DNA of 17,462 nt from a virus (taxonomy: Duplodnaviria; Heunggongvirae; Uroviricota; Caudoviricetes). Numbering within the stretch: the first letter of the stretch is position 1; each line of letters starts with the position of its first letter. The translations under genes and the position numbers were made by a program. The stretch is from positions 1 to 17,462 of the IMG/VR virus record IMGVR_UViG_2711768066_000009; one strand, given 5' to 3'. A model generated the notes under the pieces. That model saw only the letters and a program-made list of their open reading frames with translations. It was not told the origin of the DNA and searched no databases. Positions 990 to 17,462 of the stretch are shown here, piece after piece.

Positions 990-1028
990 ACAACAGGAAT
1001 TGTTTCGGTATAACTTCAGGAGTTTTCT

Positions 1029-1202: not shown

Positions 1203-1218
1203 TCATAGCTGGTGCTTT

Positions 1219-1250
1219 TTGAAAACCCGCCTTTAGGCGGGTTTTTTATT
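1219..1250. terminator. bidirectional rho-independent terminator between convergent transcription units
   Basis: AAAACCCGCC-TTTA-GGCGGGTTTT perfect 10-bp stem, flanked by A-run upstream and T-run downstream; sits between the stop of the 57-aa ORF (+) and the stop of the minus-strand gene at 1250. Confidence 0.75.
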
Positions 1251-1531: not shown

Positions 1532-1567
1532 AATTTTCTCCATCAAAACCGGCTGCACCCGGGAAAA

Positions 1568-3311: not shown

Positions 3312-3838
3312 TTGCGTAACTCCGATAATTCGTTAAAGCGTTCCATAAACATCCCGTAGGCATAGCCTGGAGCCAGTGGAATCACGTTGAACATCTCTGT
3401 TGCCGGGATACCTTCCAGTACAGGCCAGAAAGAGCCATCATCAAGCCCGAGATCGCGGCGTTCGGTTGCCAGCATGATGAGATCGGCATATTTCACGGGC
3501 GTACTCATAACCGGTGGTAACCCGTATTTCTCACGGATTACGGCGTCTATTTTTTCTTCCATCCGTTTATAGTCAGGAAGAAGGCGTTTCAGTGGTGCGG
3601 GAATGTCCTGGCAATACGCTTCTGTTGCATCATGCATTAACGCTTCAAAAGCAAATTCCTGCGGCACCAGCTGGCTGCAAAGAACCGCATGTTGGGCGAC
3701 GCTGTAGAAGTGCGAAAGATGACCGGCAAAGCGACAGATATTTGAAAGGGAAACCGCGATATCGTTAATATCGATGTCGTCTTTATTTATCCTGTCATAA
3801 TAAAAATGCTTCCCGGAAAAAGTTTTAATAAATGACAT
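3302..3838 (-). CDS. yfdR: HD-domain phosphohydrolase (YfdR-like 5'-deoxynucleotidase family)
   Basis: Start set at internal ATG (MSFIKTFSGKHFYY...) preceded by GGAGAACAA. HD motif present (EALMHDATEAY). Resembles E. coli K-12 CPS-53 YfdR as I recall it. Confidence 0.65.
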   Translation of the reverse strand: MSFIKTFSGKHFYYDRINKDDIDINDIAVSLSNICRFAGHLSHFYSVAQHAVLCSQLVPQEFAFEALMHDATEAYCQDIPAPLKRLLPDYKRMEEKIDAVIREKYGLPPVMSTPVKYADLIMLATERRDLGLDDGSFWPVLEGIPATEMFNVIPLAPGYAYGMFMERFNELSELRKCA

Positions 3839-3931
3839 TTTGTTCTCCACGTATATGCGCTGCACTGCGCTGAATTCTGCTAAAAAGAATCCCTCACCAT
3901 CCGGTGATTATTGAGTTAATTACGTTTCCAT

Positions 3932-3953
3932 AAATGCCCCCGCAGGGGCATTT
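3932..3953. promoter_or_regulatory. perfect palindrome/hairpin AAATGCCCC-CGCA-GGGGCATTT in intergenic region
   Basis: 9-bp perfect inverted repeat with 4-nt loop between the DUF2303 gene stop and the HD-gene start; no adjoining U-run, so not a classical intrinsic terminator. Confidence 0.4.
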
Positions 3954-3965
3954 GCAGTAATGAAA

Positions 3966-4790
3966 TCAGGCGGTGAAAGTACCAATAAAGGTTTCTACTT
4001 TGCTGTCTTTGAATTTCTCAACAAGCAGATCACGAAATTCGTTAGCCATTTCTTCCTGCACCGCTTCCAGCTGAATAATGCGCAGAACCAGTACAGGACG
4101 ATCGCCAGTGATAATGCTGAGGCGTAATTTAAACGGACGTTCTTTCAGACCTTCAAACGGAACGCATTTAAATTCAAATGCCACTGGCATAATGTCTTTG
4201 GTCTTCGCTTCGACAGACTCCATCAGGGAGCGTTTGCCGCTGAAGTCATTGTCTTCAAAATCAGCGGTCTGGTTCGCTTCAATTGTGATTTTACGGATCG
4301 CCGCAGCCGCTTTGGTTGCCTGAATGGCGTCACCATTAGCATCAAAGCCCACAAGGTAGTCGGCCCAGTCTTCAATCCATTCTGCCAGTGACTTCTGGGA
4401 GTTACGCTCGCCATTAACAGACAACAGAGCAGAGAACGGTGCTGTCTTTTTCAGTTTGAGAGTGGCGGTGTTATCTGCGTGACCTGGTTCATCAATAGTA
4501 CCCAGGTTAAGCACACTGACGGCTCGCATATTATCGGCATCGATAAAGCAGCGGGTGCCTTCATCTGCAAGATCTTTAGAATAACGGGTAAAGTCATCGA
4601 TGCTGGCAGTGGAAAGTGAACCACGGAAACGGAAACGATTTAAATTAAATTTTTCCAGATCACGAATGCGGAAATTCTCAGGCAATGCCACAGCATCGGC
4701 ACCAATCTTACTGATAATTTCATTAACACCCTGAGCAGAAATAAGGGCATGGATTTGATTAATTGCGGTTGCGTCTAAGTACTGAGACAT
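3966..4790 (-). CDS. yfdQ: DUF2303-family prophage protein (YfdQ-like)
   Basis: 274-aa ORF, GAGGA RBS 6 nt upstream of ATG. Length and sequence resemble K-12 CPS-53 YfdQ as I recall; function unknown. Confidence 0.6.
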
Positions 4791-4855
4791 AATAAGTCCT
4801 CACTATATTAAGATATTCAGTGATGAGATAAATAATCAGTTAATTAAGAACGATA

Positions 4856-5218
4856 TTAATGACCTGCTGCGCGGAGTTTTCCGTCAGGTTCACCGGCAAG
4901 AGTCAGTAATTGTCCCTGGTCTTCCTGCAGAATAGTCAGGCGACCACCGCGATTGACATACATCGGCGTTTCGGTGGTGTCTTCTTCGGAAATTTTCCCG
5001 CGGTTAGTCGGGCGAACATATGAGAGTTTGTGTTTGATTTTCACACGGTTCTCATCAAATGGTTCGATTTCCAGGTTGAGTGAGACCTTCCCTTTGGTTT
5101 TCGTGTTCATCACACCGGAAGCGACTTCACTGAGAACTGCGCCGATTTTGGTTTCAAATACGCCGCCGTCCAGCTCCCCGATAAATGCCTGCACATCAGT
5201 ACTGCGTTCGCTAGCCAT
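4856..5218 (-). CDS. hypothetical phage early protein (YfdP-like), first gene of leftward early operon
   Basis: ORF track extends to 5449, but the internal ATG at 5218 (MASERSTDVQAFIG...) has a strong GAGGAG RBS and gives 120 aa; the upstream extension overlaps a structured terminator region. Confidence 0.55.
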   Translation of the reverse strand: MASERSTDVQAFIGELDGGVFETKIGAVLSEVASGVMNTKTKGKVSLNLEIEPFDENRVKIKHKLSYVRPTNRGKISEEDTTETPMYVNRGGRLTILQEDQGQLLTLAGEPDGKLRAAGH

Positions 5219-5352
5219 TTTGCTGCTCCTCATCATATCGACCCTGCAAGGTCGGTTAGTTTCTCCACAAAACAGAGAAGAACACCTGCGGTGGCAGCCG
5301 CCCGGATGGATTGGGTTATGAGCCCGTCGTCCGGTGATGCTCTTCTCTGTTT

Positions 5353-5401
5353 TGTAAAAAGAGCGGTACCAGCCGGAAGCAAGTGTACAAACTGGTACCG
5401 C
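5353..5401 (-). terminator. candidate intrinsic terminator in the leftward leader (tL-like)
   Basis: On the minus strand: 10-bp GC-rich stem (CGGTACCAG... / ...CTGGTACCGC, plus coords 5363-5372 and 5392-5401), 19-nt loop, then CTCTTTTTAC U-run. Confidence 0.45.
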
Positions 5402-5811
5402 CAAAGCAGTGGCTGTTGTGGTGGGGTTGTCACTCAGGCGTATGGTCAACCTGACAATCCGGTGTCCTCAACGGGGAAAGAGTAACCCCGCCATACTTAC
5501 CGCCGCGCCATTTCGCGGATTACCACAACGCTGAGAGCACTTAGCCAGTTACGGCACCACACTTTGTCGCTGCTCCATAAATGCCCTCATCGTTGCACCC
5601 TGGTCTATTCCCAGGCGTCAAACCGAATCGCCACGCTGGTTAGGCGTCTTATCAGCATCCTCATTGACTTGCACATTCCGGCTACCTGGTTTGTTTGCCC
5701 GAGCAAGGAGTGGATTGTCCCCTTTAACGTCCCCAGACCGCTAACGACGCATGTGCCATACGCCGTGTTACAAGCAAATTTTGTTTAATCTTCCTGTGGC
5801 ATGTTTCTTTT

Positions 5812-5845
5812 AGATACATTATGTATCTTAAGGGTACATTGTCAA
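5812..5845 (-). promoter_or_regulatory. PL-like leftward promoter with overlapping palindromic operator
   Basis: Minus strand reads TTGACA (-35, plus 5840-5845), 16-nt spacer, CATAAT (-10, plus 5818-5823). Perfect 17-bp palindrome AGATACATTATGTATCT (5812-5828) overlaps the -10 and start site. Confidence 0.5.
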
Positions 5846-5849
5846 GTAT

Positions 5850-5872
5850 AAAAAAACCTGCCGAAGCAGGTT
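5850..5872 (-). terminator. intrinsic terminator downstream of the repressor gene
   Basis: Minus strand: GCAGGTT... stem (7 bp, AACCTGC/GCAGGTT, 4-nt loop) followed by a run of 7 U (plus-strand A-run 5850-5856); lies between cI stop (5884) and the PL -35. Confidence 0.6.
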
Positions 5873-5883
5873 ATAAATATTGA

Positions 5884-6558
5884 TTAGGCCTTTATTTTGT
5901 ATCTTCTTGGTTTTCCTGAGAAAATTACTGTACCAATTATAGAGCAATTACCGTTAATCTTAATGTAAGGCTCAGGCCAGTTTGGGTTTAATGCTTTGAG
6001 ATAACGCTGTGTTCCATCTTCTATCAATCGCTTGAAGGTGGTTTCGCCTGTATCGTGCATCAATGCAATAACGTCGTCACCGTGGCAGGCAGGGACTTCG
6101 GGATCAACAAAAATCATGTCTCCCGGGCGATACTCATCAATCATTGAATCACCAATCACCCGCAAGATATAAGTCATTTCGCCACAGGGTACAGGGCAGG
6201 GATAAGTTTCTGCTGTGCTCAAATCAACCTCAGAATAGCCAACTTCTTTCCATGCTCCGGCCTGTACCCATGATATGACAGGGACTAACGTTATTTGTTT
6301 GTTAGTGATTGAAACATCAGGTTTTTTTGTGATGTTCGTGGTCTGGTGTTCTTGATCAAGCCATCCGACAGGCAGGTCGAAACATTTTTCGATGTGCCGT
6401 GCCATGCTGTCACCGATATTTTTAGTAGCACCATCTCCCATAAACCTGCTGGTCTGGGTTGGCTCGCGATCAATCATGGTGGCAAAGGAAGAATTCCCGC
6501 CAACACCATCTCTCAGTTTTCTGGCGTTAGACCGCCGGATGTCATGGACTGTTTTCAT
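5884..6558 (-). CDS. cI: CI-like prophage repressor (N-terminal HTH, C-terminal S24 LexA-like peptidase domain)
   Basis: 224-aa ORF; C-terminal region (VIGDSMIDEYRPGDMIFVD...) matches the S24 autocleavage domain pattern (Ser in GDSM). Position divergent from cro; weak or absent SD, consistent with a leaderless transcript. Confidence 0.85.
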   Translation of the reverse strand: MKTVHDIRRSNARKLRDGVGGNSSFATMIDREPTQTSRFMGDGATKNIGDSMARHIEKCFDLPVGWLDQEHQTTNITKKPDVSITNKQITLVPVISWVQAGAWKEVGYSEVDLSTAETYPCPVPCGEMTYILRVIGDSMIDEYRPGDMIFVDPEVPACHGDDVIALMHDTGETTFKRLIEDGTQRYLKALNPNWPEPYIKINGNCSIIGTVIFSGKPRRYKIKA

Positions 6559-6648
6559 AAAGAAATTAAAACCTTTGTACCGATAAGGTACAAGTATCTT
6601 GAAGGTTCATATTAATCATGTAATATGTATATCGGAGGTACATATTGT
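6559..6648. promoter_or_regulatory. immunity-region divergent promoters and operators (OR/PR/PRM-like)
   Basis: 19-bp palindrome TTGTACC-GATAA-GGTACAA (6575-6593). Rightward promoter candidate TTGAAG (6599-6604), 16 nt, TAATAT (6621-6626). Imperfect second site GGTACATATTGTATG (6636-6650). Leftward -10 candidate TTTAAT directly upstream of the cI ATG. Confidence 0.55.
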
Positions 6649-6849
6649 ATGAAAGCGTATTGGGACTCTTTAACCAAAGAACAGCAGGGCGAGTTGGCCG
6701 GAAAAGTTGGCTCAACACCAGGCTACTTACGGCTGGTTTTCAATGGTTATAAAAAAGCCAGTTTTGTGCTGGCTAAAAAACTTGAGCAATGCACGTCAGG
6801 TGCAATTACGAAATCTGACTTAAGACCGGATATCTATCCGAAAGATTAA
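6649..6849 (+). CDS. cro: Cro-like HTH regulator (YdaS-like)
   Basis: Start at ATG 6649 with GGAGG upstream (MKAYWDSLTKEQ...); small HTH protein; C-terminal ITKSDLRPDIYP resembles YdaS/Cro-family proteins; divergent from cI. Confidence 0.7.
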   Translation: MKAYWDSLTKEQQGELAGKVGSTPGYLRLVFNGYKKASFVLAKKLEQCTSGAITKSDLRPDIYPKD

Positions 6850-6880
6850 CAGAACACCTTCAATTTTTAACCACAGAACG

Positions 6881-7444
6881 ATGAGGCGAACCGTGGGTAA
6901 GCATCACTGGAAAGTAGAAAAACAGCCTGAGTGGTACGTGAAAGCTGTCAGAAAAACTATCGCGGCGTTGCCGGGGGGTTACGCTGAAGCTGCTGAGTGG
7001 CTGGATGTAACAGAGAACGCTTTATTCAACCGCCTTCGTGCAGATGGCGATCAGATTTTCCCGCTGGGATGGGCAATGATTTTACAGCGCGCGGCTGGCA
7101 CTCACTACATTGCGGATGCTGTCGCACAGTCTGCTGGTGGGGTGTTTGTATCGCTTCCTGAAATTGAGGAAGTAGAGAACGCCGATATAAACCAGCGCCT
7201 GCTGGAAGTCATCGAACAGATCGGGAGTTACTCAAAGCAGATTCGTTCGGCAATCGAAGATGGGGTAGTGGAGCCACACGAGCAGACAGCAATTAATGAT
7301 GAGTTGTATCTGTCAATTTCGAAGCTCCAGGAGCATGCAGCACTGGTCTACAAAATCTTTTGCGCTCCAGAAAAGAGTGACGCCCGCGAGTGTGCAGCTC
7401 CGGGCGTCGTGGCGTTTTGTGTCTGTGGAGAAACTAACGCATGA
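6881..7444 (+). CDS. CII-like/YdaT-family regulatory protein
   Basis: 187-aa ORF immediately after cro in the rightward operon; start may instead be the in-frame GTG at 6893 (GAGG upstream). Family call is from position and general resemblance only. Confidence 0.5.
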   Translation: MRRTVGKHHWKVEKQPEWYVKAVRKTIAALPGGYAEAAEWLDVTENALFNRLRADGDQIFPLGWAMILQRAAGTHYIADAVAQSAGGVFVSLPEIEEVENADINQRLLEVIEQIGSYSKQIRSAIEDGVVEPHEQTAINDELYLSISKLQEHAALVYKIFCAPEKSDARECAAPGVVAFCVCGETNA

Positions 7445-8277
7445 ACAGTTTAACGGCAAATAACCGTTTGTCGCAACAGCTGGTGGTCAGTGTCGCTGAA
7501 CACCTGTTGTTACGGCATGAATGCAGATTACCAAATCACCTGGCTGTAAGTAACCACAGAGAACTTTACCTGACTGTGGGGGGCGAGTTGTGCAGGAACT
7601 TAACCGCTGGTTTCGTGACGGAAGAGGACTTTATGTTCATGTTATTCGTTGGGAGCCAGAAACACAGCGCGTTATCTATCTTCGCAAAGACTACCCGCAT
7701 GAGTGCTTTAGTCCTTTGTGGAAATTCAGGCGTGATTTTGTTGAGTGTGAAGGACCACCAGCACATTGATTCTGCCATTCCGGGACGTTACACTGTTCAG
7801 GCACCTTATAAAGCGGGTGTCGGGATTGGCGTCCTGGAATTCAATATAGAGCATAACCGCGCTCATGCGGTTTTTTCGTATCATGAGCATTGCTACGTCC
7901 AAATTATGGTGGGGCGTGCAGGGGCATCGCAAGATGCGCCGGGTTCTATGTTGACCGGTTACGCCAACCCTGTACGTCTCACCACCTCTGTGATTGGCGT
8001 CCCATGTGGTGAGTTCTTTGAATTCAACATAGGGGCTGTCACCATGACTACTCTCCCAACCCTCGCTCGTCTGAATGATGAAGACTTACATAAACTCAGT
8101 TATGTAACAACTGCACTACGTGCTCTGCGCAAGGTAACTCTTTCGGATCCGCAGGCGCATCAGGTTCTGGTAGAAACACTTCTTAACTTGCAGGCTGAAC
8201 GTATTCGTTTGGCGGATAAGGCTAATTTTCATATTCACCGTCTCCTGAATATCAGCGGAGGGCATCGTCATGCTTAA
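7441..8277 (+). CDS. hypothetical protein (278 aa), unknown function
   Basis: Sole long ORF in this interval; ATGA overlap with the upstream gene, and its stop overlaps the ATG of the next ORF; no recognisable motifs. Confidence 0.6.
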   Translation: MNSLTANNRLSQQLVVSVAEHLLLRHECRLPNHLAVSNHRELYLTVGGELCRNLTAGFVTEEDFMFMLFVGSQKHSALSIFAKTTRMSALVLCGNSGVILLSVKDHQHIDSAIPGRYTVQAPYKAGVGIGVLEFNIEHNRAHAVFSYHEHCYVQIMVGRAGASQDAPGSMLTGYANPVRLTTSVIGVPCGEFFEFNIGAVTMTTLPTLARLNDEDLHKLSYVTTALRALRKVTLSDPQAHQVLVETLLNLQAERIRLADKANFHIHRLLNISGGHRHA

Positions 8278-8506
8278 TCCGTTGATCCTCAATATTTGCC
8301 GTTTGCTTCAGCGTAAAAAAACATCAATTCCTACAGTTGGGCAGTGGTACACCACGCCTGCAGGGCATGTTCTACGTGTTAGCCTGGTTGACCGTGAATG
8401 TCAGAAGGTGATTTGTGAACCGCTGGGCCGTAATTACCGCGTCAGTATGCCGCTTATAACCTTTCGCTCCGGAAAAAACATGAAGCATCTCGGAGGTGCA
8501 GCATGA
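8270..8506 (+). CDS. hypothetical small protein (78 aa)
   Basis: ORF overlapping both neighbours (coupled translation); no family recognised. Confidence 0.45.
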   Translation: MLNPLILNICRLLQRKKTSIPTVGQWYTTPAGHVLRVSLVDRECQKVICEPLGRNYRVSMPLITFRSGKNMKHLGGAA

Positions 8507-9321
8507 GTATGGAGCTAATGGTTAAAGCGATGAAAATTCGAGTGGGAAATCCATTGCGAAAACTGGTTCTGATTAAGCTGGCTGATAATGCCAGCGATCA
8601 GGGTGAGTGCTGGCCCAGCTACCAGCATATTGCTGACCAGTGCGAGATTAGCAAACGTTCTGTGATGAATCATATTGCGGCCCTTTGTGAGTCCGGGCTG
8701 GTAAAAAAAGTCACCCGGAAAGGTGAAAAAGGTAACTCAAGTAATATCTATCTCCTTCATCTGGATGGTGCAGGAGATTCACTAGGGGGTAGTGCAAATA
8801 ATTCACTATCTGGTGCAGCAAATTCACCAGGTAGTGCAGGAGTTGCACCAGGGGGTAGTGCAGGAGATTCACCCAGAACCAGTCACTCTTTTGAACCAGT
8901 CAAAGAACCAGTCAATGAACCAATAGCTGTTGGTGCATCTGCTGATGAGTCTGTGCGAGTTCGTTCAAACCGACCGGAATACTCTCCGGAGTTTGAGCAG
9001 GCATGGCTGGCATATCCCAAACGTGCTGGTGGCAATTCAAAATCTGCAGCCTTCAAAGCCTGGAAAGCCCGTTTGAATGAGGGGGTAAACCCCGAAACCA
9101 TGCTGGAAGGTGTGAAACGCTACGCGGGCTGGGTATCTGCGATGGGTAACAGCGGCACACAATTTGTGAAACAGGCTGTCACGTTCTTTGGTCCGGATCG
9201 TCATTTCGAAGAATCCTGGGAAGTTCCTGCGGTATCTGCAGCTAGACGTGAGGACCCGTACTTCAAAGCCAGTTACGACAACGTGGACTACAGCCAGATC
9301 CCGGCAGGATTCAGGGGGTGA
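8503..9321 (+). CDS. phage replication initiation/replisome-organiser protein (N-terminal HTH, conserved phage C-terminal domain)
   Basis: N-terminal HTH typical of phage replication proteins (LVLIKLADNASDQGECWPSYQHIADQCEISKRSVMNHIAAL). C-terminal motif EFEQAWLAYPKRAGG...KAWKA resembles the conserved phage replication C-terminal domain. Central low-complexity Gly/Ser/Ala linker coincides with DNA iterons. Confidence 0.65.
   Translation: MSMELMVKAMKIRVGNPLRKLVLIKLADNASDQGECWPSYQHIADQCEISKRSVMNHIAALCESGLVKKVTRKGEKGNSSNIYLLHLDGAGDSLGGSANNSLSGAANSPGSAGVAPGGSAGDSPRTSHSFEPVKEPVNEPIAVGASADESVRVRSNRPEYSPEFEQAWLAYPKRAGGNSKSAAFKAWKARLNEGVNPETMLEGVKRYAGWVSAMGNSGTQFVKQAVTFFGPDRHFEESWEVPAVSAARREDPYFKASYDNVDYSQIPAGFRG
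8767..8923. repeat. iteron-like direct repeats inside the replication gene (candidate origin)
   Basis: GTGCA-containing units recur at about 21-25 bp spacing (cores near 8768, 8792, 8813, 8834, 8859), including near-identical GGTAGTGCAGGAG(A)TT copies; followed by GAACCAGTCAA twice (8893-8903, 8905-8915). Confidence 0.45.
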
Positions 9322-9415
9322 TCATGAGTCTGTTAAATGACGTTCAGAAATTCATTGAAGCCCATCCGGGCTGTACTTCCGGAGACATTGCGGATGCTTT
9401 TTACGTGGGGGCTTA

Positions 9416-10069
9416 ATGAGTAATAAATATTGCCAGGCGCTGGTAGAACTGCGGAACAAACCAGCCCATGAACTGAAGGAAGTGGGCGATCAGTGGCGCA
9501 CGCCGGACAACATTTTCTGGGGAATTAACACTCTGTTTGGCCCGTTTGTTCTGGATCTGTTTACTGACGGTGATAACGCCAAATGTGCCGCGTATTACAC
9601 GGCGGAAGATAACGCGCTGGCGCATGACTGGTCAGAACGTCTTGCGGAGCTTAAAGGTGCTGCCTTTGGTAATCCCCCATACAGCCGCGCCAGTCAGCAT
9701 GAGGGGCAATACATCACCGGCATGCGTTACATCATGAAACATGCCAGTGCCATGCGTGATAAGGGCGGGCGCTATGTTTTCCTGATCAAAGCTGCCACCA
9801 GCGAAGTGTGGTGGCCGGAAGATGCGGACCATATTGCTTTTATTCGCGGGCGTATTGGTTTTGAACTGCCTGCCTGGTTTATCCCGAAGGATGAGAAGCA
9901 GGTGCCGACAGGCGCTTTCTTCGCTGGTGCTATTGCTGTTTTCGACAAGACCTGGAAGGGACCGGCAATCAGCTACATCGGGCGCGATGAACTTGAGGCA
10001 TGTGGTGAGGCCTTTCTGGCGCAGGTTCGCCAGCAGGCAGAAAAACTGGTCAGGGAGATGGCGGCATGA
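9416..10069 (+). CDS. phage Dam-like DNA N6-adenine methyltransferase
   Basis: 217-aa ORF with NPPY catalytic motif (FGNPPYSRA); size and layout typical of phage Dam-family methyltransferases; ATGA-coupled to downstream gene. Confidence 0.8.
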   Translation: MSNKYCQALVELRNKPAHELKEVGDQWRTPDNIFWGINTLFGPFVLDLFTDGDNAKCAAYYTAEDNALAHDWSERLAELKGAAFGNPPYSRASQHEGQYITGMRYIMKHASAMRDKGGRYVFLIKAATSEVWWPEDADHIAFIRGRIGFELPAWFIPKDEKQVPTGAFFAGAIAVFDKTWKGPAISYIGRDELEACGEAFLAQVRQQAEKLVREMAA

Positions 10070-10392
10070 CGACGTTAACTCAATGCCAGCAGCAGGTGCT
10101 GGATATGCTGATTTCTTACCAGAAAGAACGTGGCTTCCCGCCAACCAATCAGGAGGTGGCAACCATGCTGGGATACCGTTCGGTGAATGCAGCGGTGGAG
10201 CATCTTCGCGCACTGGAGAAAAAAGGCGTCATCACGATAAAGCGTGGCGTGGCCCGGGGGATAACGCTTCATACCGCGATGAAGGACGACGACAGCGAGG
10301 CGGTCGGGATTATCCGCTCACTGCTTGCCGGTGAGGAAAACGCCAGGCTGCGTGCAGCCCACTGGTTACATGAGAGGGGCCTGAAAGTATGA
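10066..10392 (+). CDS. LexA DNA-binding-domain-like protein lacking the S24 peptidase domain
   Basis: 108 aa; residues 1-70 align convincingly with the E. coli LexA N-terminal winged-helix domain (QQQVLDMLISYQKERGFPPTNQEVATMLGYRSVNAAVEHLRALEKKGVI vs LexA [50 protein letters not shown]); no cleavage/peptidase region. Confidence 0.75.
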   Translation: MTTLTQCQQQVLDMLISYQKERGFPPTNQEVATMLGYRSVNAAVEHLRALEKKGVITIKRGVARGITLHTAMKDDDSEAVGIIRSLLAGEENARLRAAHWLHERGLKV

Positions 10393-10778
10393 AGCTGATC
10401 CTGCCTTTTCCGCCCAGCGTGAACACGTACTGGCGACACCCCAACAAAGGGGCGTTTGCTGGTAAGAGCCTGATAAGCGCGGCGGGGCGAAAATTCCAGA
10501 GCGCGGCGTGCGCTGCAATAGTTGAGCAGTTACGTCGTCTGCCGAAACCAACGTCGGCACCTGCTTCAGTGGAGATCGTGTTGTTTCCTCCGGATAACCG
10601 GATCCGCGATCTGGACAACTATAACAAGGCGCTGTTTGATGCCCTGACCCACGCGGGTGTGTGGGAAGACGACAGCCAGGTGAAAAGAATGCTGGTGGAG
10701 TGGGGACCGGTTATCCCGGAAGGGAAGGTCGAGATCACTATCAGTAAGTACGAGAAAACGGCGGGTGCAGCCGCCTGA
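10389..10778 (+). CDS. rusA: RusA-family Holliday junction resolvase
   Basis: 129 aa; N-terminal LPFPPSVNTYWRH and central DLDNYNKALFDALT match RusA catalytic-core motifs. Confidence 0.85.
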   Translation: MKLILPFPPSVNTYWRHPNKGAFAGKSLISAAGRKFQSAACAAIVEQLRRLPKPTSAPASVEIVLFPPDNRIRDLDNYNKALFDALTHAGVWEDDSQVKRMLVEWGPVIPEGKVEITISKYEKTAGAAA

Positions 10779-10797
10779 TTAAGAGGAGAAACGAAGT

Positions 10798-11607
10798 ATG
10801 AATAATCTGATGGTCATTGATGGTATTGAAGTTCGTCGTGATGCTTATGGTCGTTACAGCCTGAACGATCTGCATCGCGCAGCAGTAGCATCTGGTGCAA
10901 ATGCCAGAACCAAGGAGCCAGGAAAGTTTATTTCCAGCCAACAAACTGTTGAGCTTGTTCATGAATTGACCAACACCCAGAATTTGGGTGTTGACCCGGT
11001 GAGTGTGATACATGGGGGAAATGAACGGGGATCGTATGTCTGCAAGGAACTGGTGTATGCCTATGCAATGTGGATCAGCCCGTCATTCCATCTGAAGGTG
11101 ATCCGTACTTTCGATATGGTAACCAGCGCACCGGAAAAATTATCCGGACAGGCTGCTGACAAGATGCAGGCTGGCGTGATCCTGCTGGACTTTATGCGCC
11201 GGGAGTTAAACCTGTCTAACTCTTCAGTGCTTGGTGCCTGTCAGAAACTCCAGGAGGCTGTTGGCTTACCGAATCTGGCACCGCGCTATGCCATTGATGC
11301 TCCTGCTGATGCACACGATGGCTCAAGTCGCCCGACACTGTCACTGAGCGCACTGCTGAAACAGTATGGTATACGCCTGACGGCTAATCAGGCATATCAC
11401 CAGATGGTGAAACTGGGGATCGTCGAGCAGCGCGAACGATACAGCCGTACCGCGATTAACAACATCAAAAAATTCTGGTCGCTGACAGCGAAAGGTTGCA
11501 TGTTCGGCAAGAACATCACCAGTCCCGCAAATCCGCGCGAGACGCAGCCGCATTTCTTCGAATCCCGATTCCCTGAGCTGTTAAAGCTGCTCGATACCGT
11601 TCATTGA
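10798..11607 (+). CDS. KilA-N domain protein (antirepressor-like)
   Basis: 269 aa with strong RBS AAGAGGAG; N-terminal region (IDGIEVRRDAYGRYSLNDLHRAA...) characteristic of the KilA-N DNA-binding domain. Confidence 0.7.
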   Translation: MNNLMVIDGIEVRRDAYGRYSLNDLHRAAVASGANARTKEPGKFISSQQTVELVHELTNTQNLGVDPVSVIHGGNERGSYVCKELVYAYAMWISPSFHLKVIRTFDMVTSAPEKLSGQAADKMQAGVILLDFMRRELNLSNSSVLGACQKLQEAVGLPNLAPRYAIDAPADAHDGSSRPTLSLSALLKQYGIRLTANQAYHQMVKLGIVEQRERYSRTAINNIKKFWSLTAKGCMFGKNITSPANPRETQPHFFESRFPELLKLLDTVH

Positions 11608-11608
11608 G

Positions 11609-12604
11609 GTGACCGTGAGAGCACTACTGACCCCTGAAATTGCCCCGCGTATGGGGATCGTATTGTTCAGGCCAGGTTCAGAGCTGATGCCCCTGTTTAT
11701 GCAGGGGCGTGTCCTGCTGGAGCCTGAGCCGGAGCGTTATTCATCTTTCGCCAGTGGTGCCGTTCCGGCGGCATCACAACCGCTGGCGGATGATCCTGCC
11801 GTTCGGGCCGTGTTCCGCAATGAGGCAGTGATCCGTCGTGCTGGTGGCGTGGAATGTCTTGAAAGCTGGTTACTTCGTGAAAAAGGCTGCCAGTGGCCTC
11901 ATTCCGACTGGCACAGCGAGAACATGACCACAATGCGACACGCTCCGGGTGCAATCCGTCTGTGCTGGCACTGCGATAACCAGCTGCGCGATCAGTTCAC
12001 GGAACGGCTGGAATCAATGGCAACGGATAACTGTGCCCGCTGGGTGTTGTCTGTTGTGCGTCGGGATCTCGGTTTTGATGACAGTCACGTTGTGACAATG
12101 CCGGAACTGTGCTGGTGGCTGATTCGTAATGATCTGGCGGATGCCTTACCGGAAAGTGCAGCCCGTAAGGCACTGAGATTACCGAAGCCTGTTGTGCCGT
12201 CTGTTACCCGGGAAAGTGACCTTGTGCCTTCGGTTCCTGCCACCAGCATCATTCAGGATAAGGCGAAAAAGGTGCTGGCGCTGAAAGTGGATCCGGAGTC
12301 GCCGGAGTCTTTTATGTTACGCCCAAAACGTCGCCGCTGGGTTAATGAAAAGTACACGCGCTGGGTTAAGACACAGCCGTGTGCATGTTGTGGAAAGCCC
12401 GCTGATGATCCCCACCACCTGATAGGTCACGGTCAGGGTGGAATGGGAACAAAAGCGCATGACCTTTTTGTGTTGCCTTTGTGCAGAAAGCATCACGACG
12501 AGCTGCATGCGGATACCGTGGCATTTGAAGAGAAGTATGGCTCCCAGCTGGAGCTGATATTTCGTTTTATCGATCGTGCGCTGGCAATTGGCGTGCTGGC
12601 CTGA
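11609..12604 (+). CDS. DUF968-family protein with Cys/His-rich C-terminal putative His-Me finger nuclease motif
   Basis: 331 aa (GTG start); C-terminal CACCGKPADDPHHLIGHGQGG...CRKHHDELH typical of DUF968 proteins in lambdoid NinR-type regions. Confidence 0.7.
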   Translation: MTVRALLTPEIAPRMGIVLFRPGSELMPLFMQGRVLLEPEPERYSSFASGAVPAASQPLADDPAVRAVFRNEAVIRRAGGVECLESWLLREKGCQWPHSDWHSENMTTMRHAPGAIRLCWHCDNQLRDQFTERLESMATDNCARWVLSVVRRDLGFDDSHVVTMPELCWWLIRNDLADALPESAARKALRLPKPVVPSVTRESDLVPSVPATSIIQDKAKKVLALKVDPESPESFMLRPKRRRWVNEKYTRWVKTQPCACCGKPADDPHHLIGHGQGGMGTKAHDLFVLPLCRKHHDELHADTVAFEEKYGSQLELIFRFIDRALAIGVLA

Positions 12605-12621
12605 TTTTGTGGAGAAAGTTG

Positions 12622-12993
12622 ATGCGTGATATTCAAATGGTTCTTGAACGTTGGGGGGCATGGGTGGCAAATAATCACGAGGATGTGGAATGGTCATCTG
12701 TTGCTGCAGGTTTTAAGGGATTAATTCCTTCGAAAGTAAAATCCCGCCCGCAATGTAGCGATGACGATGGCCTGATCATTAGCTCTGCGATGACAGTTCT
12801 TAAGAAAAAGGAACCGTATCAATACGAATTACTGGAAATGTATTATGTGTATGGGGTTACATTACGGGCGTTGGGGGTAAAACTGGGGATATCACTTAAT
12901 CAGGTTGTTATCAGACTGCAGAAAGCTGAAGGGTTTATTGACGGTTGTCTGGCAATGTTGGGGGTATCTTTAGAAATTGATTGTTACATATAG
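12622..12993 (+). CDS. Q: Q-like late-gene antiterminator
   Basis: Start at ATG 12622 (GGAG upstream; MRDIQMVLERWGAWVANNHEDV...); resembles phage-21/82-type Q (QuuD-like) proteins as I recall; positioned just before the late region. Confidence 0.75.
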   Translation: MRDIQMVLERWGAWVANNHEDVEWSSVAAGFKGLIPSKVKSRPQCSDDDGLIISSAMTVLKKKEPYQYELLEMYYVYGVTLRALGVKLGISLNQVVIRLQKAEGFIDGCLAMLGVSLEIDCYI

Positions 12994-13030
12994 TAATAAA
13001 TTCAATCAAAGTAAATAATCATATTTTATT

Positions 13031-13067
13031 ATAACCTCCTGATGATACCTGTTCATCGGGAGGTTAT
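13031..13067 (+). promoter_or_regulatory. 15-bp stem-loop sequestering the ribosome-binding site of the downstream moron gene
   Basis: ATAACCTCCTGATGA (13031-13045) pairs with TCATCGGGAGGTTAT (13053-13067), one G-U pair, 7-nt loop; the 3' arm contains GGGAGG and ends 1 nt before the ATG at 13069. Confidence 0.5.
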
Positions 13068-13068
13068 T

Positions 13069-13686
13069 ATGGATAAAAATGTAGAGCATGTATTAGTTGA
13101 TGCAATTGAAAATAAGCAATCTTTAACAGTCGTTTACTTAGGAGGGAGCCAGCCCGGAACATTAAGGAATATTTCTCCGATTAGTATAAATGGGGATAAA
13201 TTGCGGGCAAGATGCCATAGTTCTGGAGCAGTAAAGGTTTTCAATCTTGGGAAAATACAGTTACCCAGTGACTCCTGCGCGGTATCTATGCACTATGGAG
13301 ATTTAGAAGTTAAAGCTTATGAGACGATGCAGAGCGTAAATGACAACTTTCATGCCCTTTATCCTGAAGGACGATGGGGTGTTGATTTTAATGAGCATCG
13401 CTTTGCTTTATTTGATTTTTTTAAAAACGGGAAACGAAAAAAAACGGCATTTATGGCAATTGAGTTCAGGGAAAGAGATGAAGAGAAAATAATAACAGGT
13501 GTAACAATTGATATTGGTATATCTGGAACAGTGATTTCTGAGAAGTCCCGAATCCCAAAAAGACGACCATGGGTAGTGGTTGGTCCCGAACACGGAGAAT
13601 ACAGTACTTATTCAACTTTGGACAAGGCTGCTACAGCGTTTTTTGAGAGGCTTTCGTTGATAGCATCCGGCCTGGAAGATAATTGA
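13069..13686 (+). CDS. hypothetical moron protein (205 aa), possible N-terminal WYL-like beta-barrel; function unknown
   Basis: Start at ATG 13069 behind GGGAGG; strongly AT-rich coding sequence unlike the flanking phage backbone; N-terminal segment SLTVVYLGGSQPGTLRNISPISINGDKLRARCHSSGAVKVFNLGKIQ loosely resembles a WYL-type domain (low confidence). Confidence 0.55.
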   Translation: MDKNVEHVLVDAIENKQSLTVVYLGGSQPGTLRNISPISINGDKLRARCHSSGAVKVFNLGKIQLPSDSCAVSMHYGDLEVKAYETMQSVNDNFHALYPEGRWGVDFNEHRFALFDFFKNGKRKKTAFMAIEFRERDEEKIITGVTIDIGISGTVISEKSRIPKRRPWVVVGPEHGEYSTYSTLDKAATAFFERLSLIASGLEDN

Positions 13687-13816
13687 TTTTATGTTTGGTA
13701 TTCAGAGTTCGCCGTGCTTAAGAAAGTCAAGATTCTAAAAATACTGAATGAGCTACTTGTGTTATAACAAAAATGCTATTAGTGTGTTAAGAGTGGTTAC
13801 TTCGCCACACAACTTA

Positions 13817-13842
13817 AACCCGCCACTGAGCGGGTTTTTTGT
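13817..13842 (+). terminator. rho-independent terminator downstream of the moron
   Basis: AACCCGC-CACTGA-GCGGGTT stem followed by TTTTTT. Confidence 0.7.
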
Positions 13843-13938
13843 ACCTGTAAACTTGGTGCAGTACAGTAAACACGCTGGTGGTCGTGAATACTGACTTTTT
13901 ATCTTGCTGGCTTTTTAGACAAGAGTTATTGGTATGTC

Positions 13939-14166
13939 ATGTTAACAAGAAGGGAAAAAGACATGCTAAAACAGCAAGATATGACAGAAACCGCCGCCGC
14001 AGTCCTTCATTTCTTACCTGCTGACAAGTGGGTAACGCCACGCATGATGACGAGAACTACCGGAGTAAGCGAAGCCCAGTGCCAGTTAATACTGACTCAG
14101 TTAGTTCTGGCGGGTCTGGCGAAGGATAACGGCGGGTACGGGAATAAATTCAGACGCTGCCAGTAA
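13939..14166 (+). CDS. small hypothetical protein, possible winged-HTH
   Basis: 75-aa ORF; segment VTPRMMTRTTGVSEAQCQLILTQLVLAGLA looks HTH-like; start uncertain (in-frame ATGs at 13939 and downstream). Confidence 0.4.
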   Translation: MLTRREKDMLKQQDMTETAAAVLHFLPADKWVTPRMMTRTTGVSEAQCQLILTQLVLAGLAKDNGGYGNKFRRCQ

Positions 14167-14316
14167 TGGCGGTTTCCTGCTGTGAAAATGGGCGGCTGGT
14201 GGGTGTTGGTAGCACCTGCCAGCCATTCGCTCATGCTTACTGGTCACAAGCGAACCACGGCCCACTGCTTTAGCGCAAAAGCAGAGTGAGCCTACCAGAG
14301 TTACGCTTACTGATCC

Positions 14317-15369
14317 ATGAAAAATACTGTAAAAATAAACAGTGTTGATTTAATCAACGCTGATTGCCTGCATTTTATTCAGTCCCTGCCTGATAACTCC
14401 ATTGATCTGATTGTTACCGATCCGCCGTACTTCAAAGTGAAGCCCAACGGCTGGGACAATCAGTGGAAAGGGGACGAAGATTACCTGAAGTGGCTGGACC
14501 ACTGTCTGGCCCAGTTCTGGCGGGTACTGAAACCAGCCGGAAGCCTTTACCTGTTCTGTGGGCATCGCCTGGCATCTGATATTGAGATCATGATGCGTGA
14601 ACGTTTCAACGTGCTTAACCATATCATCTGGGCGAAGCCGTCCGGACGTTGGAATGGGTGTAATAAAGAAAGTCTGCGTGCATATTTTCCTGCCACAGAG
14701 CGCGTTCTGTTTGCTGAACATTACCAGGGGCCATATCGCGGCAAAAGTGACGGCTATGCGGCAAAAGAAAGGGAACTCAAACAGCACATAATGGCACCGC
14801 TGATATCGTATTTCAGGGATGCTCGTGCCGAACTGGGTATAACGGCAAAACAAATTGCCGAAGCCACAGGTAAGAAAAATATGGTTTCCCACTGGTTTGG
14901 TGCCAGTCAGTGGCAGTTGCCGAATGAGGCTGACTATCGGAAGTTACAGGCACTGTTTTCCCGTATAGCGGCAGAGAAGTTTCAGGAACAACAACTGGAA
15001 CAACCACACCACCAGCTGGTGGCATCTTATGATTCACTGAATCGTAAATATTCTGAATTGCTGGATGAGTTTAAATCTCTCCGGCGCTATTTCTCCGTAT
15101 CAGTCTCCGTGCCTTATACCGATGTCTGGATGCATAAACCCGTTCAGTTCTACCCGGGGAAACATCCGTGTGAGAAACCGGCGGATATGCTCAGGCAAAT
15201 AATCAATGCCAGTAGTCGACCAGGTGATCTGGTTGCTGATTTTTTTATGGGATCCGGTTCCACAATAAAAGCAGCAATGGCGCTGGGGCGTCGGGCCTTA
15301 GGTGTTGAGCTTGAGTCAGAGCGGTTTAATCAGACAGTGAAAGAGATAAACGAGCTGGTGGGGAAATAA
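14317..15369 (+). CDS. DNA methyltransferase, beta-class amino-MTase (N6-adenine or N4-cytosine)
   Basis: 350 aa; DPPY motif near the N-terminus (LIVTDPPYF) and AdoMet-binding motif near the C-terminus ([13 protein letters not shown]); this motif order is typical of beta-class MTases. No adjacent restriction endonuclease gene. Confidence 0.8.
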
Positions 15370-15436
15370 TCTGGTGGCCACGTCAGGTGGCCTTTTTATT
15401 TCCATTACACAGCACCCGCATCTGCGAGGTGGGGTT

Positions 15437-15652
15437 ATGAAATCCATGGATAAGTTAACAACGGGTGTCGCCTATGGCACCTCAGCAGGTAGTGCCGGTT
15501 ACTGGTTTTTACAGCTGCTCGATAAAGTCACGCCCTCACAGTGGGCAGCAATAGGTGTGCTGGGTAGCCTGGTATTTGGCCTGCTGACGTACCTGACAAA
15601 CCTTTATTTCAAGATTAAAGAAGATAAGCGCAAGGCTGCGAGAGGTGAATAA
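15437..15652 (+). CDS. S: class II holin (phage 21 S21-type pinholin) with dual-start motif
   Basis: MKSMDKL... gives two in-frame starts (ATG 15437 and ATG 15446), as for S21 antiholin/holin; the remainder closely matches S21 as I remember it. Confidence 0.85.
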
Positions 15653-16149
15653 TGCCTCCATCATTACGAAAAGCAGTTGCTGCTGCTATTGGTGGCGGAG
15701 CAATTGCTATAGCATCAGTGTTAATCACTGGCCCAAGTGGTGACGATGGCCTGGAAGGTGTCAGCTACATACCATACAAAGATATCGTTGGCGTATGGAC
15801 TGTATGTCACGGACACACCGGAAAAGACATCATGCTCGGTAAAACGTATACCGAAGCAGAATGCAAAGCCCTCCTGAATAAAGACCTTGCCACGGTTGCC
15901 AGACAAATTAACCCGTACATCAAAGTCGATATACCGGAAACAACGCGCGGCGCTCTTTACTCGTTCGTCTACAACGTGGGTGCTGGCAATTTCAGAACAT
16001 CGACGCTTCTTCGCAAAATAAACCAGGGCGATATCAAAGGCGCATGTGACCAGCTACGTCGCTGGATATACGCTGGCGGTAAGCAATGGAAAGGCCTGAT
16101 GACTCGTCGTGAGATTGAGCGTGAAGTCTGTTTGTGGGGGCAACAATGA
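15652..16149 (+). CDS. R: SAR endolysin (phage 21 R21-type lysozyme)
   Basis: 165 aa; N-terminal Gly/Ala-rich signal-anchor-release segment ([20 protein letters not shown]) followed by a lysozyme domain; overlaps holin stop and Rz start. Confidence 0.9.
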
Positions 16150-16613
16150 GCAGAGTAACCGCGATTATCTCCGCTCTGGTTATCTGCATCATCGTCTGCC
16201 TGTCGTGGGCGGTCAATCATTACCGTGATAACGCCATCGCCTACAAAGAACAGCGAGATAAAAAAGTCAGTGAGCTGAAGCAGGCGACCGCCACCATTAC
16301 TGACATGCAGCAGCGCCAGCGTTCTGCTGATGCACTCGATGCTAAATACACGAAGGAGTTAGCTGATGCGAAAGCTGAAAATGATGCTCTTCGGCGCAAG
16401 CTTGATAATGGTGGGCGGGTGTTCGTCAAAGGAAAATGCCCTGTGCCATCCTCAGCCGAAACCTCCAGCGCCTCCGGCATGGGCAATGATGCCACCGTCG
16501 AACTCTCTCCAGTTGCTGGACGAAACGTTCTCGGTATCCGGGACGGAATTATCCGCGACCAAACAGCACTGAGAACGCTTCAGGAATACATCAGGACGCA
16601 ATGCCTTCGATGA
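16146..16613 (+). CDS. Rz: Rz i-spanin
   Basis: Start at ATG 16146 (ATGA overlap with endolysin); N-terminal TM segment plus coiled-coil-like region; closely resembles lambda Rz. Confidence 0.85.
16366..16572 (+). CDS. Rz1: Rz1 o-spanin lipoprotein, embedded in Rz in the +1 frame
   Basis: Lipobox LIMVGGC followed by Pro-rich segment [11 protein letters not shown]; entirely within Rz, as in lambda. Confidence 0.8.
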
Positions 16614-16753
16614 TAGCGATAATTTTACTCATCATCCTTCACATCTGGCTCTGTAGACAGGATGGTGATCACTTCTGGAGTGAATCCAGATTAAACATCT
16701 CATTGCTGATGCTTGATATTGAGCATCTTGCGCGCGGTAAGGGGCTGCGTTGA
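16610..16753 (+). CDS. possible small membrane protein (47 aa)
   Basis: Hand-translated: [47 protein letters not shown]; ATG overlaps the Rz stop (ATGA); hydrophobic N-terminus; below ORF-track cutoff. Confidence 0.3.
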
Positions 16754-16787
16754 GATAAGAGCCAGTCATTACAAATACCAGGATTTA

Positions 16788-16847
16788 GCCTCGCATTCGC
16801 GGGGCTTTTTATTGCCATTACAAAAGCCACTCCCTACAGAGTGGCTT
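16788..16847 (+). terminator. tandem intrinsic terminator candidates after the lysis cassette
   Basis: GCCTCGC-ATTC-GCGGGGC followed by TTTTTATT (16788-16813); second hairpin GCCACTC-CCTACAG-GAGTGGC followed by TTTGATAAT (16826-16850). Confidence 0.55.
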
Positions 16848-17149
16848 TGATAATGGCTTATACCCTACACGGGATAGCTTAACTGATATCCCTTTTAACG
16901 GATAAAGGTATTCAAGCCTGACACATCATGCGCTGTATCGTCGCCGTATTCCCGTATTAACAGAGACCGTAGCCCGACGGGGAACTCCTTCTGCGCGAGT
17001 GTGCGGGAATAATCAAAAACGATGCACACCGGGTTTTTACCGCGTTTATGGTGCGCGGTTTTGTCCCTCATAGTCGCCCGTCCGGTGCGATGGTGGAAGA
17101 AGCCGGATATTAATGCAAGTGATAATTATTCTCATCTTTGCGGGTCCTT

Positions 17150-17357
17150 TCCGGCGATCCGGCCTGTTACGGGGCGGCGACCTCGCGGGTTTTCGCTATT
17201 TATGACAATTTTCCGGTTTAAGGCGTTTCCGTTCTTCTTCGCCGTAACCTAATGTTTTTATTTAAAACACCCCCTGAAAAGAAAGGAAACGACAGGTGCT
17301 GAAAACGGGCTTTTTGGCCTCTGTCGTTTCCTTTCTCTGTTTTTGTCCGTGGAATGA
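17150..17357. other. lambda-like cos region (cosQ/cosN/cosB); cosN cohesive-end sequence GGGCGGCGACCT at 17182-17193
   Basis: GTTACG-GGGCGGCGACCT-CGCGGGTTTTCGCTATTTATGA... matches my recollection of the lambda genome ends nearly base for base, with small indels before nu1. Confidence 0.75.
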
Positions 17358-17360
17358 ACA

Positions 17361-17462
17361 ATGGAAGTCAACAAAAAGCAGCTGGCTGACATTTTCGGTG
17401 CGAGTATCCGTACCATTCAGAACTGGCAGGAACAGGGAATGCCCGTTCTGCGAGGCGGTGGC
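17361..17462 (+). CDS. nu1: terminase small subunit Nu1 (N-terminal 34 codons; continues past window end)
   Basis: Translates to MEVNKKQLADIFGASIRTIQNWQEQGMPVLRGGG, matching the lambda Nu1 N-terminus as I recall it. Confidence 0.85.
   Translation, partial: MEVNKKQLADIFGASIRTIQNWQEQGMPVLRGGG

Follow-up and report, generated by a model that had tools for sequence, protein, structure and literature searches.

We found that a conserved structured RNA leader lies directly upstream of the start codon of a late methyltransferase gene in a 17,462-nucleotide (nt) stretch of caudoviral DNA (IMG/VR record IMGVR_UViG_2711768066_000009, positions 1 to 17,462; hereafter the window), which is part of a lambdoid prophage. 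Judged by its sequence, the gene belongs to the characterised M.EcoGII family, a known kind of anti-restriction gene. Leader and gene are components of a portable late-operon cassette of lambdoid phages, in which a terminator, a small open reading frame (ORF) of predicted winged-helix type, a second terminator, the RNA leader, the M.EcoGII-family methyltransferase gene and a third terminator follow one another. Taken as one explanation, to which we assign a probability of roughly 70%, the cassette would supply a late anti-restriction enzyme and the leader would act as a translational switch. The enzyme is already explained; what is new is a widespread and strongly selected RNA leader before M.EcoGII-type genes, which extends across Enterobacterales and, among complete E. 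coli genomes, occurs in about one in five. The features of the cassette are the following.

13816-13841, + strand: intrinsic terminator hairpin plus U6 tract, upstream limit of the cassette (-13.8 kcal/mol, z-score -3.2)
13963-14166, + strand: small ORF of 67 amino acids (aa), PHROG family 331 (phrog_331, E 1e-25), with no assigned function
14156-14179, + strand: terminator-like hairpin over the stop codon of the small ORF (TAA in the loop), followed by UUUCCU (-11.9 kcal/mol)
14180-14316, + strand: conserved structured RNA leader, 137 nt, directly 5' of the methyltransferase ATG
14317-15369, + strand: M.EcoGII-family beta-class N6-adenine DNA (and RNA) methyltransferase, 350 aa, predicted to be non-specific
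15376-15400, + strand: intrinsic terminator in the gap between the methyltransferase and holin genes (terminator scan; -12.2 kcal/mol, U5 tract)

A preliminary description of this DNA, made from its letters, had pointed to the intergenic region 14167-14316 as GC-rich and structured, and both properties were confirmed. Its G+C content is 56% compared with 48% for the whole window, and its + strand folds with a z-score of -2.8, only 2 of 200 shuffles folding as well. The leader core (14185-14316) shares 84-87% nucleotide identity with loci from Kosakonia, Salmonella, Klebsiella and a metagenome, whereas in the same comparisons the small ORF reaches 54-57% and the third codon positions of the methyltransferase gene 44-52%. 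The leader is under strong purifying selection. Its unpaired stretches are very strongly conserved, and the conservation of its sequence continues unbroken into the start codon of the methyltransferase. The similarity of the leaders might alternatively reflect the recent horizontal spread of one cassette, without selection on the RNA, since the leader is 99-100% identical in most of the E. coli genomes that have it and lambdoid phages recombine freely. However, third codon positions are saturated, and the small ORF is strongly diverged, in the very comparisons in which the leader is conserved, and distant families keep its pairing through compensatory changes, so that this explanation is already contradicted and deserves next to no credence.

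The helices of the leader were derived from RNAalifold together with inspection.

14189-14193 with 14260-14264, + strand: P0 (UGGGC/GCCCA), the closing helix of the three-way junction formed with P1 and P2
14194-14205 with 14213-14224, + strand: P1, a hairpin of 12 base pairs (bp)
14226-14235 with 14245-14254, + strand: P2
14266-14271 with 14278-14283, + strand: P3
14286-14291 with 14305-14310, + strand: P4 (GUGAGC/GCUUAC)

Two alignments support these helices. In a MAFFT alignment of 35 diverse leaders, 87.4% of the cells were paired, against 31-47% when the partners were slid, and 17 pairs showed changes on both sides, against 4-7. In a covariance-model alignment of 67 leaders, 89.9% of the cells were paired (28-43% for slid partners) and 18 of the 33 pairs were compensatory (3-6 for slid partners); none of 500 shuffles of this alignment attained the observed pairing values. 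P1 is almost wholly rewritten and yet paired in Lonsdalea, Yersinia, Ewingella and Providencia. The sole change found in P0, G to A in Mixta, is compensated by C to U, and P4 is paired in 85.8% of the cells compared with 34-48% for its slid controls. Many of the G-U pairs in the leader would become A-C mismatches on the opposite strand, and the structure was assigned to the + (mRNA) strand because such pairs are frequent. The covariance model found a single match in the window (155 bits, + strand) and one copy per locus. All these results establish, as far as computation can, that the leader is a selected RNA structure. A kissing interaction between the loops of P1 (GGUAG) and P4 (CUACC) was paired in 79.5% of the cells, with covariation no better than that of shuffles.

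The same data bear on whether the leader acts as DNA, either as the operator of the winged-helix protein or another DNA-binding protein or by linking mosaic modules for recombination. In favour of this, RCQLILTQL, predicted to be the recognition helix of the small protein, is invariant, and its target could be invariant too; P3 is near-palindromic (GCTTTAGCGCTAAAGC in some loci), and an invariant GATC stands just before the methyltransferase AUG. However, compensatory changes maintaining four helices and G-U pairs tolerated on the + strand only are signatures of RNA, covariation is not expected of a passive recombination linker, and the leader persists in loci without the small ORF. We therefore regard a role at the DNA level as improbable.

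To describe the distribution of the leader, a scan of one genome per species was performed, which yielded 80 loci across Enterobacterales, with the leader directly upstream of the ATG in about 60 of the 80. The genera with the leader include Providencia, Morganella, Yersinia, Hafnia, Ewingella, Lonsdalea and Rosenbergiella, and diverged copies in which pairing is kept by compensatory changes were observed in Morganellaceae, Hafniaceae and Yersiniaceae. More than 120 viral contigs contained a pattern taken from the leader centre, and in all 78 evaluable contigs, of 80 listed among these matches, the methyltransferase start was located 72-73 nt downstream. Of 5426 complete E. coli genomes, 1065 carry the leader, and no annotated feature was found beneath the match among the 12 records listed. 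Leader and small ORF likewise precede genes encoding proteins 90% identical to M.EcoGII. No match to Rfam 15 (4227 families) was found in 14167-14316 when 12500-15700 was scanned at E<=1, and the leader alone, at E<=10, gave only chance minus-strand matches to mir-4428 and Streptomyces-metK. Neither the leader nor the small ORF is described in the literature retrieved by full-text searches on the leader sequence, lambdoid late-region methyltransferases and N6_N4-associated RNA motifs. The leader thus appears to be an undescribed structured RNA specific to M.EcoGII-type genes.

Two coding candidates at the leader were considered and rejected. A 34-codon ORF starting from the AUG at 14189 is interrupted in relatives, and a putative upstream ORF closed by the UGA that precedes the methyltransferase AUG by 3 nt amounts to an in-frame stretch of 7 codons without a start. 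No frame was open in all 62 sequences compared, the variation had no 3-nt periodicity, and the indels in the loops were not multiples of three. In Trabulsiella (locus L026, 1502-1583), nhmmer detected part of the leader's 5' half a second time, about 800 nt upstream of the full copy (E 3e-8), where the covariance model was silent at E<=0.01.

The product of the late methyltransferase gene matched the Pfam family PF01555 (N6_N4_Mtase) with an E value of 2e-42 and 145.9 bits (cut-off 26.7), covering profile positions 1-220 of 221. Motif IV, DPPY, occupies residues 35-38 (TDPPYF, 34-39) and FxGxG residues 310-314 (FFMGSG, 309-314), with about 270 residues between the motifs. Because DPPY precedes and FxGxG follows, which is the motif order of the beta class, the enzyme was assigned to that class. 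Its halves align separately to solved beta-class enzymes, for example M.RsrI and M.MboIIA; a sequence search of structures found no solved member of the M.EcoGII family, the matches being other beta-class enzymes in two pieces. Compared with M.EcoGII, 282 of 349 residues are identical (81%) over the full length, with one gap region and with the target-recognition region included; machine reading of the M.EcoGII sequence (Supplementary Table S1) from a PDF introduced a small number of errors, which may have put the figure slightly below its true value. Full-length identity was 89% to the reconstructed ancestor Anc291 and 70% to SUPREM, both engineered ancestors, these sequences, like that of M.EcoGII, having been taken from Tables S1/S4 of PMC11551740. 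More than 3,000 homologues were found at E<=1e-10, and the best 120 listed were named almost all from enterobacterial genomes.

M.EcoGII methylates adenines irrespective of their context, and its substrates include double-stranded DNA, single-stranded DNA and RNA. The enzyme is prophage-borne and yields no methylation signal in lysogens, and its constitutive expression makes cells sick (PMC5778455). Reconstructed ancestors of the family were largely non-specific too (PMC11551740). Since the family is already known as non-specific, the late enzyme is expected to methylate any A and to have no motif, and blanket N6-methyladenine (m6A) for anti-restriction is its expected function. Anti-restriction, one of the two roles proposed in the preliminary description, is thus likely, while its reading of an uncharacterised orphan serving epigenetic regulation does not fit an M.EcoGII-family enzyme, the characterised members being non-specific; nor does a target specificity to be predicted from REBASE suit a family that methylates adenine in any context (PMC5778455, PMC11551740). 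The enzyme resembles M.EcoGII/M.EcoGI of E. coli O104:H4 C227-11 (Murray et al. 2018, PMC5778455) in length, to within one residue, and M.EcoGII in its beta-class order, DPPY, a central four-helix target-recognition region containing a helix-turn-helix (HTH), FxGxG and the lambdoid prophage setting. It differs in being another allele, with about 19% of the residues changed. The published work on M.EcoGII makes no mention of an upstream ORF, terminators or a conserved leader (PMC5778455).

The late methyltransferase gene sits in the prophage between the antiterminator gene Q and the lysis genes.

12607-12993, + strand: late antiterminator Q (PF06530, Phage_antitermQ, E 5e-48)
15438-16613, + strand: lysis cassette of P21-type holin S, lysozyme R and Rz (PF04971, PF00959, PF03245)

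The gene order is identical in the phages Ayreon, SfV, mEp460 and cdtI and in Stx2c phages, and identity over the cassette module is 96-99% in Ayreon, mEp460, cdtI and SfV (orf47/orf48), falling to about 89% in Stx2c phages. Loci with a diverged small ORF (about 50% identical) were found in Escherichia, Kosakonia, Salmonella, Klebsiella and metagenomes. In these four genera the order is Q, sometimes a variable insert, the small ORF, a spacer of 149-150 nt, a methyltransferase of 347-353 aa and the lysis genes; the short metagenome contigs cover only the small ORF, the spacer and the methyltransferase. The cassette flanks, all on one strand, include Q antiterminators of three Pfam families and lysis cassettes with several holin types. 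Homology blocks to other phages begin at 13768-13817 of the window, within about 50 nt upstream of the first terminator or at the terminator.

The outer terminators are annotated in known phages: the site equivalent to 13816-13841 is an annotated rho-independent terminator in SfV and Ayreon, and the site of 15376-15400 is an annotated terminator in the same two phages. The hairpin at 14156-14179 is weak in the window and a clear intrinsic terminator in relatives, such as locus L012 from Klebsiella (GCCCCCA-GUAA-UGGGGGC-UUUUUG) and locus L088 from Hafnia (a 10-bp stem and then U6). A hairpin with a U-rich tail was also found directly 5' of the leader in all nine inspected viral contigs in which no small ORF was detected directly upstream. 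A consensus scan detected no sigma-70-like promoter between 13843 and the ATG of the small ORF.

In phage lambda, the genes from Q to S are transcribed from the promoter pR' by Q-modified, terminator-resistant polymerase. Because two terminators precede the methyltransferase gene, its transcripts would arrive only from pR' under Q antitermination. Because transcription would depend on Q, the enzyme would be produced late in lytic growth, and progeny DNA would be heavily methylated before packaging. Heavy m6A would shield this DNA from many m6A-blocked Type I, II and III restriction systems. The proposed Q-only route agrees with the silence reported for M.EcoGII in lysogens.

The arrangement of terminator and leader also raises the question of whether the leader is a stable RNA in its own right, for example a trans-acting small RNA (sRNA), a decoy (sponge), or a piece of the late transcript that is cut out and concerned with processing or stability. 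The terminator hairpin directly 5' could set the end of such an RNA, the strong conservation of the unpaired stretches would suit it, and lambdoid prophages encode small RNAs in the Q-to-lysis region (PMC4104026). A transcript acting by itself is nevertheless unlikely, as the distance to the methyltransferase AUG is fixed and the leader never occurred without the methyltransferase gene in the 78 evaluable viral contigs. Moreover, conservation runs on into the start codon, there is no terminator between leader and gene and no conserved promoter before the leader, and the covariance model finds one copy per locus.

The fixed position of the leader relative to the gene fits a cis-regulatory mRNA leader. 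No AGGAGG-like Shine-Dalgarno sequence was found upstream of the methyltransferase AUG, unlike the AUGs of the small ORF and the holin gene. The leader, we propose with moderate confidence, would be a bistable translational switch for an AUG without a Shine-Dalgarno sequence, which would dose a toxic enzyme. Besides the covariation-supported structure (fold A), a second structure (fold B) is suggested by two additional helices.

14242-14252 with 14304-14315 (-13 to -2 of the AUG), + strand: alternative helix, from the minimum-energy fold
14189-14194 with 14228-14233, + strand: alt-P0

The minimum-energy fold of the leader in the window is of the fold-B type, at -56.9 kcal/mol compared with -45.6 kcal/mol for fold A. 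This fold joins the 3' strand of P2 (GGUCA-C-AAGCG) to CGCUU-AC-UGAUC and the 5' strand of P0 (UGGGCG) to the 5' strand of P2 (CGCUCA). The alternative helix was paired in 88.7% of the cells, against 20-44% for slid controls, with AU replaced by GC in 8 sequences and GC by AU in 6, and alt-P0 in 96.2%, against 30-64%. Both are mutually exclusive with P0, P2 and P4. In fold A, the P0/P1/P2 junction together with P3 and P4 would leave UGAUCYAUGAAAAA single-stranded. In fold B, the 3' strand of P2 would pair with positions -13 to -2 while the 5' strand of P0 paired with the 5' strand of P2, and the ribosome landing site would be occluded. Candidate triggers of a transition between the two folds would be a small molecule such as S-adenosylmethionine (SAM) or S-adenosylhomocysteine (SAH), the winged-helix protein, the methyltransferase itself and co-transcriptional folding kinetics.

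A number of observations count against the explanation as a whole, most of them against the switch. The pairing values of the alternative helix and alt-P0 are inflated relative to those of the slid controls, because both helices were read off this sequence and its minimum-energy fold. The alternative helix has 19 compensatory cells, and some slid controls reach 17-20; alt-P0 has one-sided changes only. The AUG itself is unpaired in both folds, and no ligand, protein partner or processing site was identified for the leader. The evidence for the switch is thus weaker than that for P0-P3. In addition, Photorhabdus and Xenorhabdus retain only a shortened leader, so that the full three-way junction is not indispensable. 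Late-only expression is deduced from gene order and terminators, and the activity and specificity of the enzyme are predicted by homology, with some 19% of its residues differing from M.EcoGII.

Other observations concern the sequence of the leader. In the loci from Photorhabdus and Xenorhabdus (L070-L097, about 85-100 nt upstream of locus position 2501), the small ORF is kept (MLKHEDMTT...PRCQLLLTQF...), and the leader keeps GUGAAAUGG, the P1 hairpin, AUUCGCC and a CAGAG-loop hairpin, without P2, P3 and the P0 partner. This short leader is a natural minimal variant that could guide dissection. A GATC at 14312-14315, 2-5 nt upstream of the AUG (UGAUCYAUG), occurs in nearly all copies and belongs to the proposed alternative helix; the phage encodes a Dam-family enzyme of its own. 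In Mu mom, Dam sites have a role at the DNA level.

Translational riboswitches, for example the SAM-III (SMK) box and the thiM TPP riboswitch, form mutually exclusive helices, one of them over the ribosome-binding region. The leader is similar in being a 5' untranslated region with a multi-helix junction, conserved unpaired nucleotides and, as proposed, mutually exclusive helices. It differs in lying outside the Rfam 15 families, in regulating, as proposed, a phage methyltransferase within a long late operon instead of a metabolic gene and in having no Shine-Dalgarno sequence. A more specific and tentative proposal, which we consider possible at well below even odds, is that the leader is a new riboswitch-like sensor gating translation of the methyltransferase. 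It might respond to a metabolite linked to methylation capacity (SAM or SAH) or to m6A that the methyltransferase itself puts on the leader's conserved unpaired adenines, which would give a self-limiting feedback by way of RNA methylation, or it might be opened by the 67-aa protein in the manner of Com.

The closest functional analogue is the com-mom operon of phage Mu, in which, as Hattman and Wulczyn and Kahmann reportedly found, the product of a small ORF, Com, opens a hairpin that masks the translation start of mom. Both systems would place a promiscuous and toxic DNA-modifying enzyme, silent in the lysogen and made late, after a small ORF and an mRNA structure masking the start, under multi-level control; a parallel between Mom and M.EcoGII has been drawn (PMC12707154). 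There are clear differences as well. Mom is no methyltransferase but makes the acetamido-adenine modification. Com binds RNA, is of the zinc-finger type and has a gene overlapping mom, whereas the small protein here is winged-helix-like and dispensable in many lineages. The Mu structure is a single hairpin, whereas the leader spans about 135 nt and comprises five helices and a three-way junction. Since the parts share neither sequence nor fold, we regard the likeness as analogy and do not place the cassette in one group with com-mom.

M.EcoGII is a widely used reagent, in Fiber-seq-type chromatin footprinting, MadID and RNA methylation tools, and a textbook case of phage anti-restriction by blanket methylation. 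To our knowledge, the way in which phages control this toxic enzyme has not been described. If the leader is a true switch, it would account for the dosing of the enzyme and give the best-studied bacterium another structured RNA regulator; it could also serve as a compact regulatory part or prove to be a ligand-sensing RNA of a new kind.

The window contains another methyltransferase gene, which lies in the early operon.

9416-10069, + strand: early-operon phage Dam-family (N6-adenine) methyltransferase (PF05869, TIGR01712)

The early enzyme matched PF05869 (E 1e-45, 156 bits, cut-off 28.1) and TIGR01712, phage_N6A_met (255.6 bits, cut-off 97), and it is unrelated to the late beta-class enzyme, which matched PF01555, in agreement with the earlier statement that the prophage carries two unrelated methyltransferases, a Dam-like one in the early operon and a beta-class one before the lysis genes. 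That statement had also noted no visible restriction partner, which held as well: no restriction enzyme was matched among the ORFs flanking either gene (Pfam, NCBIfam, PADLOC) and no nuclease among the neighbours of the late gene, and no restriction gene lay beside the late methyltransferase in any inspected related locus with called genes. These results weigh on the view that the late gene is one half of a restriction-modification (RM) system with a C-type controller, or else a sequence-specific epigenetic orphan. Annotation pipelines do label the gene "site-specific DNA-methyltransferase", the top PADLOC match is a Type II methyltransferase model, and a small HTH-like ORF stands upstream, as it does in RM systems with controller (C) proteins and C-boxes. 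However, the flanks are always Q (plus the variable insert in some loci) and the lysis cassette. The nearest experimentally characterised relatives are non-specific, and M.EcoGII gives no methylation signal in lysogens. The small ORF matched no Xre-type HTH (HTH_3), no C-box-like repeat was found upstream, and some cassettes do not contain the small ORF. We consider an RM half or a specific orphan very unlikely, and a blanket-methylating late enzyme remains our preferred reading. The controller element that the preliminary description proposed for the small ORF and the intergenic region thus does not hold in the sense of an RM C protein, the ORF being missing from some loci, but the RNA leader is the regulatory candidate backed by evidence, and its conservation and complexity go well beyond the GC-rich structure first noted.

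The small ORF had been taken as a 75-aa HTH-like frame, and this longer reading, 13939-14166, exists as an ORF. Because all of its 142 homologues begin with MLKQQDMTE, we place the true start at the ATG at 13963 and its length at 67 aa, the form annotated in Ayreon and in SfV (orf47). A purine-rich AAGAAGGG lies 8 nt upstream of this ATG. Some of the homologues are named "TrmB family transcriptional regulator" at NCBI. In the alignment, the N-terminus, MLKQQDMTET, and the third helix, RCQLILTQL, are invariant, and the middle is highly variable. AlphaFold predicted helices at residues 4-17, 26-33 and 37-49 and strands at 52-55 and 62-65, that is, three helices and a two-strand wing, with a predicted local distance difference test score (pLDDT) averaging 70. 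The Foldseek matches that could be classified by entry description were winged-helix domains (IscR, IclR, MarR, Z-alpha), the best with an E value of 0.07 and none significant, and no match was found in Pfam, NCBIfam or PADLOC. The protein thus looks winged-helix-like in its predicted structure, in line with the HTH-like label, while the earlier start and length were corrected.

Most loci with the methyltransferase also have the small ORF. It was undetected in 8 of the 74 viral contigs with sufficient upstream sequence, and it is absent, with the full leader kept, in Yersinia, Hafnia, Ewingella, Lonsdalea and Morganella; roughly 10-15% of the loci with leader and methyltransferase are without it. 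Because it is absent from lineages that retain leader and methyltransferase, it is accessory and dispensable. Two 30-nt islands within the ORF, 13963-13992 and 14080-14109, which encode MLKQQDMTET and RCQLILTQL, show 73-97% nucleotide identity, third codon positions included, whereas the other 30-nt windows show 20-50%. This conservation of synonymous sites suggests an additional constraint at the RNA or DNA level, or recombination junctions.

The remaining observations concern the neighbourhood of the cassette and the rest of the window.

5884-6558, minus strand: S24-type repressor (also listed as cI-like)
13042-13686, + strand: 214-aa ORF after Q (PHROG 8498, no assigned function, with a weak sub-threshold WYL match)

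The window also contains cro-like and cII-like genes, a replication gene and genes for RusA, KilA-N and a DUF968/HNH protein; a tRNA scan found no tRNA genes in it. Different loci have different insertions ("morons") in the gap separating Q from the cassette; in the window, this variable site holds the PHROG 8498 ORF. In the related loci examined, the place of this ORF is taken by other genes. Relatives in E. coli (L001, 2347-2923; L003, 2136-3587, minus strand; L005, 2274-3735, minus strand) have either two ORFs without assigned function or, on the opposite strand, a 483-aa AAA_15/AAA_21 ATPase, and a Salmonella locus (L010, 2424-2843) has a 139-aa ORF. Inserts at this site could be candidate prophage-borne defence genes.

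Known sRNAs of the region were also considered. The prophage anti-sRNAs AsxR and AgvB (Tree et al. 2014) were rejected as candidates, since their conserved 3' half was not found in the window even when 3 mismatches were allowed; they lie between a moron and a conserved hypothetical ORF (PMC4104026). On the minus strand, 13808-13944 resembled the Salmonella sRNA STnc130 below the Rfam threshold (30 bits, gathering score 55, E 0.08); this match is oriented against the late operon and runs towards the terminator at 13816-13841. Convergent sRNA pairs at such sites were described by Tree et al. 2014 (PMC4104026).

Directly after the early Dam gene, 10066-10392 (+ strand) encodes a 108-aa protein with a LexA-type DNA-binding domain only (PF01726, E 3e-19), without a peptidase domain. 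At the left end of the window, 1-573 (+ strand) encodes a SocA/Panacea-domain protein (PF13274, E 2e-19), followed by an overlapping 139-aa ORF without a family match; by its sequence, this pair (1-989) looks like a Panacea-type toxin-antitoxin system.

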